Below are positions 33,994 to 34,533 of a DNA stretch of 64,000 bases, piece by piece (position 1 is the stretch's first letter; every line of letters begins with the position of its first letter). The stretch lies in sequence record PQ352352.2; one strand, 5' to 3'. The stretch is from Escherichia phage vB_EcoM_PTE-Eco15. Made by a program: the position numbers and the translations under genes. Below the pieces are notes generated by a model. It was not told the DNA's origin, made no database searches, and was given only the letters and a program-made list of their open reading frames with translations.

Positions 33994-34533
33994 ATGAGAA
34001 CATTTTTAACTGGTCCTTATCTATCCCTGATGAATGCTTTTACACACCATTCTGATGCTAGAGTAGAAGAAATTTGTAAAAACGATTATATCCCGCCATT
34101 TGAAGAATTACTTAAACAGTACTGCACACTTCGACTAGATGGTGGACGTCAATCTGGTAAATCAATTGCTGTGACTAACTTTGCTGCTAATTGGTTGTAT
34201 GATGGCGGAACAGTTATTGTTCTTTCTAATACTTCAGCTTACGCTAAAATTTCTGCGGGCCACATTAAAAAGGAATTTTCTCGTTATTCTAGCGATGATA
34301 TACGTTTTCGTTTATTTACTGATTCTGTGCGCAGTTTTATCGGTAATAAAGGAAGCAAGTTCAGAGGTTTATCGCTTTCGCGAATTTTGTATATAATTGA
34401 TGAGCCTGTCAAATCTCCTGATATGGATAAGATTTATAGTGTCCATATTGACACTGTACACTGCTGCTGTAATATTAAATGTTGCATTGGTGGTATTACT
34501 CGTCCACAGTTTTTCGTAATCGGAATGCAATGA
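33994..34533 (+). CDS. Hypothetical P-loop NTPase with C-terminal Cys cluster
   Basis: 179 aa from internal ATG; Walker A GGRQSGKS, Walker B ILYIIDEP; C-terminal HCCCNIKCC. Confidence 0.5.
   Translation: MRTFLTGPYLSLMNAFTHHSDARVEEICKNDYIPPFEELLKQYCTLRLDGGRQSGKSIAVTNFAANWLYDGGTVIVLSNTSAYAKISAGHIKKEFSRYSSDDIRFRLFTDSVRSFIGNKGSKFRGLSLSRILYIIDEPVKSPDMDKIYSVHIDTVHCCCNIKCCIGGITRPQFFVIGMQ

Follow-up and report, generated by a model that had tools for sequence, protein, structure and literature searches.

A T4 vs.8 orthologue with the features of a stand-alone terminase-type ATPase core domain, downstream of a conserved RNA-like motif

The window analysed here is the whole 64,000-nucleotide stretch of Escherichia phage vB_EcoM_PTE-Eco15 (record PQ352352.2), which is T4-like (Tequatrovirus) and has Shigella phage ESh30 as its top DNA match (99.2%). 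An intact open reading frame of 179 codons runs on its plus strand from an ATG at 33994 to a TGA at 34531-34533. It occupies the vs.8 position in the order e lysozyme, an internal-protein gene, denV, an ipII-like gene, an ipIII-like gene, vs.8, vs.7, a GrcA-like vs.6, then three small genes, regB and vs.1; the T4 block reads denV, vs.8, vs.7, vs.6, vs.5, vs.4, vs.3, regB. The location of vs.8 upstream of vs.7, vs.6 and the genes leading to regB in the e-to-tk region is conserved between the window and T4, whereas the gene directly upstream differs, being denV in T4 and an ipIII-like gene in the window phage. The stop codon of vs.8 and the start codon of vs.7 share an ATGA at 34530-34533, a 4-nt overlap that is identical in T4 and suggests that the two genes may be translationally coupled. 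The features referred to in the text are the following.

1..1833, minus strand: large terminase subunit gp17 (610 aa), with LSRQLGKT, AMIYIDEC and IIITTTPNG in its translation; its homologues carry Pfam PF03237
33889-33942, upstream of vs.8: core of an RNA-like motif, unannotated, recognised by a covariance model (69 bits, E 7e-18)
33994..34533, plus strand: vs.8 orthologue, 179 aa, a stand-alone terminase-type ASCE ATPase core domain
34141..34164, plus strand: Walker A motif (P-loop) G50-GRQSGK-S57, with the P-loop arginine R52 aligned with R162 of gp17
34363..34368, plus strand: R124-G125, counterpart of the invariant R245-G246 of gp17 in the TerL alignment
34384..34407, plus strand: Walker B motif I131-LYIIDE-P138, with E137 as the candidate catalytic carboxylate, aligned with D255-E256 of gp17
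34459..34485, plus strand: Cys-rich loop H156-CCCNIKC-C164, lineage-specific and flanked by helix 144-155 and the last strand
34510..34530, plus strand: C-terminal strand F173-FVIGM-Q179 (residues 172-175 modelled as a strand)
34530..34859, plus strand: vs.7 orthologue, 109 aa, function unknown (PHROG 2049, E 2.8e-54)

The initial annotation had described a 179-aa protein with the Walker A motif GGRQSGKS and the Walker B motif ILYIIDEP, and had likened it to a large terminase elsewhere in the window with motifs of the SRQLGKT and MIYIDE type; all of these can be read from the sequence at the positions listed above. Two longer products of vs.8 were also considered. Gene callers often pick an alternative in-frame ATG at 33946, which gives 195 aa, and the T4 record annotates Vs.8 at 219 aa, with an N-terminal extension that arises from an 8-nt insertion fusing an upstream frame. 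Both were rejected, as the extensions show no in-frame conservation and frame-breaking indels occur upstream of vs.8 across genera. Since, in addition, the homologues all align starting at M-[KR]-x-[FL]-L-T, 33994 is the best start. A scan for sigma-70 promoters upstream of vs.8 found no sigma-70-like promoter.

The protein is identical to T4 Vs.8 (NP_049732) at 171 of 179 residues (96%) over its full length, and matches PHROG 1488, a family of unknown function, over residues 3-179 (E 1e-78). The gene is therefore the orthologue of phage T4 vs.8. Annotators have named it variously hypothetical protein, DNA packaging protein, terminase large subunit and endoribonuclease, the last of which is wrong. 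By tblastn, full-length vs.8 was found at 36-100% identity in about 1000 phage records, covering phages of Escherichia, Klebsiella, Enterobacter, Yersinia, Salmonella, Citrobacter, Serratia and Erwinia, and the family is broadly kept across the Straboviridae in the same genomic region. The three distant members that could be placed on long contigs all lie in this accessory region of 155-168-kb phage genomes, and distant members adjoin endolysin, denV, regB, vs, tk or Gly-radical genes. The view of a stand-alone paralogue as unusual was thus right about the stand-alone domain and overstated as to its rarity, the gene being long annotated in T4 and present in most T4-like phages.

An exhaustive HMM search of 1.8 billion representative proteins returned 50 relatives at E values up to 1e-3, all of 66-259 aa and none of them a full-length terminase, so that the Vs.8 family forms a separate clade of small proteins. 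Not every member is intact. Phage Lutter carries a frameshifted copy, a T2 record a split one and SV76 a fragment, and the decay of the gene in these viable phages suggests that it is dispensable. In a divergent branch of the family (P0056, P0058, P0060, P0065), the G-K-[ST] of Walker A is replaced by G-H-[ST] and the Asp-Glu of Walker B is gone, so catalysis has probably been lost there.

Upstream of vs.8, a region at about 33853-33990 (~140 nt) shows far stronger nucleotide conservation than the coding sequence. Its block ACCUGU-R-A-N-AAGGUC-N-AGC-S-C-(N3-4)-GCGGUAA hardly varies even between phages with Vs.8 proteins of no more than about 40% identity. An upstream ORF of 33 codons (33882-33983) was rejected as the cause of this conservation, as no reading frame survives the indels seen across genera, although the nucleotides themselves do not vary. 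The covariance model found exactly one copy of the motif in the window. Across 27 distinct 54-nt units, the helix that closes the core is 93% paired and has a covariation score of 0.329, compared with 0.086 +/- 0.025 in shuffles, none of 500 of which reached the observed score. One position of this helix is paired in every unit, as A-U, C-G, U-A or U-G at similar frequencies, and phage Ivi adds G-C there. Compensatory changes are also seen in the flanking hairpins: one of them occurs as CUAGC/GCUAG, CCACC/GGUGG and CCAUC/GAUGG, and in phage S16 a GCCA...UGGC pairing becomes GCCG...CGGC. Trimming to the 54-nt unit was needed to obtain this signal: run on the raw MAFFT alignment, RNAalifold gave a weak result (-5.96 kcal/mol, no covariation) because the variable hairpins were misaligned, and the single-sequence fold of the upstream RNA was no better than shuffles (z -0.11).

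The motif was present in 787 records overall, and in most of the phage records listed no annotated feature covers it. It can be separated from vs.8, being absent from some vs.8-bearing phages and found in unrelated contexts, namely in a 93-kb contig, where it follows a tRNA cluster, in a record assigned to Vequintavirinae, and in the 45-kb Escherichia phage Ivi, where it lies in the gap behind the endolysin gene. A terminator-like hairpin and a U-run follow the motif in phage Ivi and in the metagenomic contigs L056 and L058, which is the layout that a free-standing small RNA or a riboswitch-type attenuator would have. Searches of Rfam with the motif, of 5,426 E. coli genomes, and of the literature with the core sequence gave no match. 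The element, which lies just upstream of vs.8, is apparently a structured RNA, and in this stretch it may be more novel than vs.8 itself.

The initial annotation had taken the vs.8 product for a stand-alone ATPase-domain paralogue of the large terminase, and profile comparisons bear this out. Single-protein scans of Pfam, NCBIfam and PADLOC gave nothing above threshold; the window protein alone scores 13.3 bits against Pfam Terminase_6N (E 0.063), below the gathering cut-off of 22. Against PDB sequences, the matches of a profile search were marginal at best, to a DNA translocase coupling protein and the SRP receptor (E about 0.07). When a 37-sequence Vs.8 profile was compared by hhalign with a 15-sequence profile of T4-type TerL ATPase domains, the two aligned over 124 columns with a probability of 96.9% (E 1.5e-10), and Walker A, the RG motif and Walker B were all in register. 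In this alignment, G51-R-Q-S-G-K-S57 of Vs.8 corresponds to S161-R-Q-L-G-K-T167 of gp17, R124-G125 to R245-G246, and D136-E137 to D255-E256. Significance was reached only with the deeper profiles on both sides, the shallow 18-sequence Vs.8 profile giving 11.8% probability against the single gp17 sequence. Family-wide searches pointed the same way. The only PHROGs with a named function to be matched were terminase large subunits, phrog_2 by 23 of the 37 members (best E 3.9e-8) and phrog_7579 by one, and the T4-type Terminase_6N was the sole terminase family among the Pfam matches listed (18 of 37 members at E up to 0.1, best 1.4e-4, all sub-threshold). These results, with which an independent 2026 paper agrees (PMC13601566), support the view that Vs.8 is a diverged and truncated paralogue of the N-terminal ATPase core of T4-type gp17.

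The motifs themselves are strongly constrained. GGRQSGKS fits the Walker A consensus GxxxxGK[ST], LDGGRQSGK is invariant in 18 homologues, and the P-loop arginine within it is a hallmark of terminases (PMC5727402). In Walker B the Asp is followed by Glu, as expected of an ASCE-division P-loop NTPase; among the 18 homologues L132, I134, I135, E137 and P138 are invariant, and D136 is conserved in at least 90%, with one D-to-E change. The full set of invariant positions in these homologues, which go down to 40% identity, comprises D49-G-G-R-Q-S-G-K56, R113, R124-G125, L132, I134-I135, E137-P138, F173, G177 and Q179, and in the 37-sequence alignment (to ~18% identity) conservation still reaches at least 90% at R52, G55, R113, G125 and P171. 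In the TerL of P74-26, an arginine located between alpha2 and beta3 is a proven trans-acting arginine finger, and this arginine is present in T4 as well (PMC5727402). The spacing of R124 relative to Walker B in Vs.8 agrees with that location, so that R124 may act as an arginine finger.

At the C-terminus the picture is different. The last strand, FFVIGMQ, lacks a Thr or Ser triplet, the coupling motif of gp17 being T285-T287, and the motif-III-like position is conserved neither as SAT nor as TTT in the Vs.8 family. This strand may be roughly equivalent to that of the gp17 coupling (C) motif, IIITTT, an equivalence we can only infer because the hhalign alignment stops at residue 155, before the strand begins. 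The position of the gp17 adenine motif Y142-Q143 is likewise not conserved in Vs.8. There is neither a lid/transmission subdomain nor a C-terminal RNase-H-like nuclease domain, since Vs.8 stops at residue 179 and the relatives recovered by the HMM search are all similarly small.

An AlphaFold2 model built on the 18-sequence alignment (mean pLDDT 80.8, pTM 0.82) predicted a single domain with a parallel beta-sheet and a RecA-like fold. The elements follow in the order of two N-terminal helices, a short strand, the P-loop with its helix, a strand-helix-strand unit, a short helix, the Walker B strand with its helix, a variable loop and the last strand. The top fold matches were all RecA-like helicase or terminase domains, so that the check proposed at the outset, in which the fold might have been assigned to an unrelated kinase or NTPase class, did not refute the terminase reading. 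Foldseek against the PDB gave weaker matches of the same classes, including the packaging ATPases of phi28, phi29, P74-26 and D6E. In a library of viral structures, the closest entries were uncharacterised proteins of 143-176 aa from many large phages, among them Proteus phiP4-3, Vibrio JSF10, Ralstonia phiRSL1, Aeromonas phiAS5, and Pseudomonas PhiPA3 and 201phi2-1. As the fold alone cannot separate terminase from helicase cores, the decision between them was made on the sequence profiles.

The defence proteins Avs1-3 and Upx detect terminase as their main molecular pattern. The vs block of T4 includes vs.4, the cyclic-nucleotide sponge Acb2. Another gene of the block, vs.3, encodes the anti-Thoeris sponge TadIV-1; with each of Vs.3 to Vs.8 driven singly by 'the promoter of vs.8', type IV Thoeris was impaired by vs.3 and by none of the others (PMC13243611). 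A link between vs.8 and a terminase sensor has been described by Evans et al. (Nat Commun 17:10151, 3 August 2026; PMC13601566), who screened T4 proteins in silico against EcAvs2. [quoted passage not shown] AlphaFold 3 placed vs.8 in the Avs2 pocket for the terminase ATPase domain, with a bridging ATP (ipTM 0.84), and five rounds of PSI-BLAST starting from vs.8 recovered T4-like terminases (PMC13601566). The authors suggest that vs.8 might serve in anti-defence, with Avs2 having evolved to detect it.

Taken together, we consider it probable, at roughly 0.6, that the T4 vs.8 orthologue encoded here is a paralogue of the terminase core and works as an ATP-loaded switch or mimic. In mechanistic terms, Vs.8 would bind Mg-ATP and probably hydrolyse it only in an oligomer or with a partner, since an arginine-finger-like residue is conserved and hydrolysis would then depend on self-association or on a second protein. 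It would act as an ATP-loaded switch or mimic instead of a DNA translocase, because no conserved coupling motif was recognised and the lid and the nuclease are absent. The distribution of constraint, strong on the nucleotide-handling residues including the arginine-finger-like Arg and apparently lacking on the coupling motif, also argues for an ATP-dependent switch or mimic and not a motor. Although it can be likened to the nucleotide-binding core of a terminase, Vs.8 is not a terminase or a packaging enzyme in the functional sense.

What the protein does for the phage can be stated only as a best guess, one that is less likely than not to be right. It may be a dispensable accessory protein of the vs.8-to-vs.3 block involved in host takeover or counter-defence, a role preferred here to packaging because the block also holds the counter-defence genes vs.3 and vs.4. 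The decay of the gene in Lutter, the T2 record and SV76 also suggests an accessory role. The case for counter-defence in particular is drawn solely from neighbouring genes; against it, vs.8 expressed alone left type IV Thoeris uninhibited (PMC13243611), and the published data show a defence sensor being triggered and not blocked (PMC13601566).

Four other explanations were weighed against the reading of Vs.8 as an ATP-loaded switch or mimic. In the first, Vs.8 modulates packaging: it would join or cap the gp17 pentamer, or bind the small terminase gp16, and so tune or delay the terminase through contacts at its retained ATPase-core interfaces, including the arginine-finger-like R124. The homology is specific to the ATPase core of T4-type TerL, the inter-subunit RG motif is conserved, and the broad retention across the Straboviridae in the same region would fit such a role. 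The gene, however, lies in the e-to-tk accessory block, apart from the late packaging genes, it is a pseudogene in viable phages, and the protein lacks the N-terminal region and the lid subdomain of gp17, so that we regard this explanation as unlikely.

A second explanation makes Vs.8 an autonomous nucleic-acid-dependent ATPase whose RecA-like domain oligomerises, or pairs with the putatively co-translated Vs.7, and remodels RNA or DNA in the manner of a helicase. Yet there is only one RecA domain, the helicase motif set was not found, and no SF2 helicase gave a significant sequence match, Pfam DEAD being hit by 1 of 37 members at E 0.077. Given also that vs.7 is unlinked to vs.8 in distant homologues and that neither SAT nor TTT is conserved at the motif-III-like position, we consider this quite unlikely.

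The cysteines suggest a third explanation, a metalloprotein in which HCCCNIKCC binds zinc or an Fe-S centre that is central to function. The loop contains five of the seven cysteines of the protein within eight residues, a non-random cluster. Its pattern CC-x(3-4)-C is kept in homologues of at least about 63% identity (T4 Vs.8 has HYCCNSKCC where the window phage has HCCCNIKCC), and H151 is conserved in most aligned homologues. In contrast, homologues at or below about 57% identity have no cysteines at the loop and retain every ATPase motif. The loop is the most variable part of the protein, with pLDDT below 50 for residues 158-168 in the AlphaFold2 model; conservation of ligand cysteines across the Vs.8 family was not found, and gp17 has no such cluster either. 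The Cys cluster is a lineage-specific decoration and not a family-defining feature, and the metalloprotein explanation is improbable, although members of the Tequatrovirus subgroup may bind a metal. The initial annotation had the protein ending in this stretch; the HCCCNIKCC at residues 156-164 is indeed present, but it lies near the C-terminus and not at it, as 15 residues come after.

Finally, an unrelated P-loop class such as a nucleotide kinase, an AAA+ protein or a STAND NTPase, with the likeness to terminases arising by chance, is hardly credible, as the weak Pfam matches that would favour it (AAA_14, AAA_30, nSTAND), like the PADLOC match to PtuA (E 0.029), are all sub-threshold and cover the P-loop only, and as the Glu after the Walker B Asp, the RecA-like fold and the TerL profile-profile match (E 1.5e-10) all speak against it.

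Returning to the switch or mimic, the pieces can also be joined in a more speculative way, one that we think unlikely as a whole. Vs.8 would imitate the terminase ATPase deliberately, in an ATP-loaded form and ahead of the real terminase, and its vs.8-to-vs.3 block would be headed by a structured RNA not described before, which, given the terminator-like hairpin behind it in three other phages, may itself be a free-standing small RNA with a role of its own during infection. If so, Vs.8 would weaken or forestall terminase-recognising host sensors or factors, for example of the Avs or Upx type, and EcAvs2 would be a sensor that has come to respond to the mimic. A conserved second protein with the ATP-binding core of terminase is either a liability of the phage or one of its tools.

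Among known systems, Vs.8 can be set beside the N-terminal ATPase subdomain I of T4 gp17 (PDB 2o0h), with which it shares only about 12-15% identity and from which it differs in lacking the equivalents of gp17 residues 1 to ~140, subdomain II (lid/transmission), the nuclease domain and, to judge by its last strand, the TTT coupling motif. The RecA1 domains of SF2 helicases (e.g. DDX1, PDB 8tbx) have a similar fold, and in comparison with these helicases Vs.8 lacks the second RecA domain and the Q, Ia, Ib and SAT motifs. The terminase-ATPase-like nature of vs.8 is already known, having been published by Evans et al. (2026), and the locus therefore does not represent a new kind of system. The same paper describes two non-terminase activators of Avs2, Ksap1 and Ksap2, which are small phage proteins with a central beta-sheet resembling the terminase ATPase, predicted to sit in the Avs2 sensor pocket and confined to particular phage taxa (PMC13601566). 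In the passages covered, the two are described by similar secondary structure only, whereas vs.8 is reported to resemble the terminase ATPase at the sequence level, Walker A and B motifs included (PMC13601566).

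Directly 5' of vs.8, the stand-alone terminase-type ATPase gene of the window, we found an RNA-like element that carries no annotation and whose ~30-nt core reads ACCUGUAAUAAGGUCGAGCCCAAGUGCGGUAA:

33853-33990, + strand, unannotated RNA-like element directly 5' of vs.8, with its core at 33889-33942

This core is near-invariant across T4-like genera, even though Vs.8 identity there is only ~40%. The closing helix of the element showed covariation (0.329 vs 0.086 for shuffles, with 0 of 500 shuffles reaching the observed value) and pairs as AU, CG, UA, UG or GC, and compensatory changes were also observed in the hairpins that flank the core. 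Furthermore, some Karamvirus-like phages contain a degenerate tandem second copy of the motif, exemplified by CCUGUAAUAAGGCCAGUCCGCGACGGUAAGGGG and located downstream of the first copy in the IMG/VR T4-like contigs L023, L027 and L053. One change, from A-U to G-C, agrees with an inner ACCU/AGGU hairpin.

In all, 787 records match the element, and among the matches listed most phage records have no annotation beneath it. Phage Ivi, one record assigned to Vequintavirinae and metagenomic contigs also carry it without vs.8, and a terminator-like hairpin lies 3' of it in Ivi and in two of these contigs (L056 and L058). We found no match to the element in Rfam or in E. coli genomes, and a literature search with the core sequence returned none.

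The start of the adjacent gene is annotated inconsistently between databases, with products of 179, 195 and 219 aa. The disputed N-terminal region corresponds to:

33946-33993 in the window
5794-5913, - strand, in the T4 record (L003)

The 219-aa product of the T4 RefSeq entry is probably artefactual, arising where an 8-nt insertion joins the conserved non-coding leader to the ORF.

The gene itself is dispensable, since it is frameshifted after residue ~114 in phage Lutter (L002, 1496-2035), and a T2 genome record (L010, 601-1136) has it broken up into fragments. Its loss may or may not reflect evasion of terminase sensors, of which Avs2 is an example. A distant branch of metagenomic relatives (P0056, P0058, P0060 and P0065) shows G-H-[ST] where Walker A otherwise reads G-K-[ST]; the Asp-Glu of Walker B is missing there, but the R-[QR]-[ST]-G core is kept. 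The branch is probably a non-catalytic offshoot; gene context was sought for one member, P0056, whose contigs are too short to reveal it.

The surroundings of vs.8 include the following features:

32138-32434, + strand, internal-head-protein gene (PHROG 3499)
32914-33174, + strand, internal-head-protein gene (PHROG 2667)
33238-33816, + strand, internal-head-protein gene (PHROG 5341)
34448-34476, + strand, sigma-70-like promoter match (TTGACA-16/17-TAATAT) inside the 3' part of vs.8
34867-35229, glycyl-radical (GrcA/PFL C-terminal-like) gene

The promoter match is a good one and falls in the region encoding the Cys loop, 5' of vs.7; the Lutter record has a promoter annotated at the equivalent position. 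A glycyl-radical gene also occurs within one to two genes of a vs.8-like gene in distant T4-like phages (L004, 4840-5493; L009, 4404-4775), even with inverted order, and this proximity may reflect plain synteny or a functional link.

In the window, denV sits between the first and second internal-head-protein genes. This order differs from that of T4, which is e, ipIII, ipII, denV, vs.8, and the accessory block has therefore been rearranged between close relatives.
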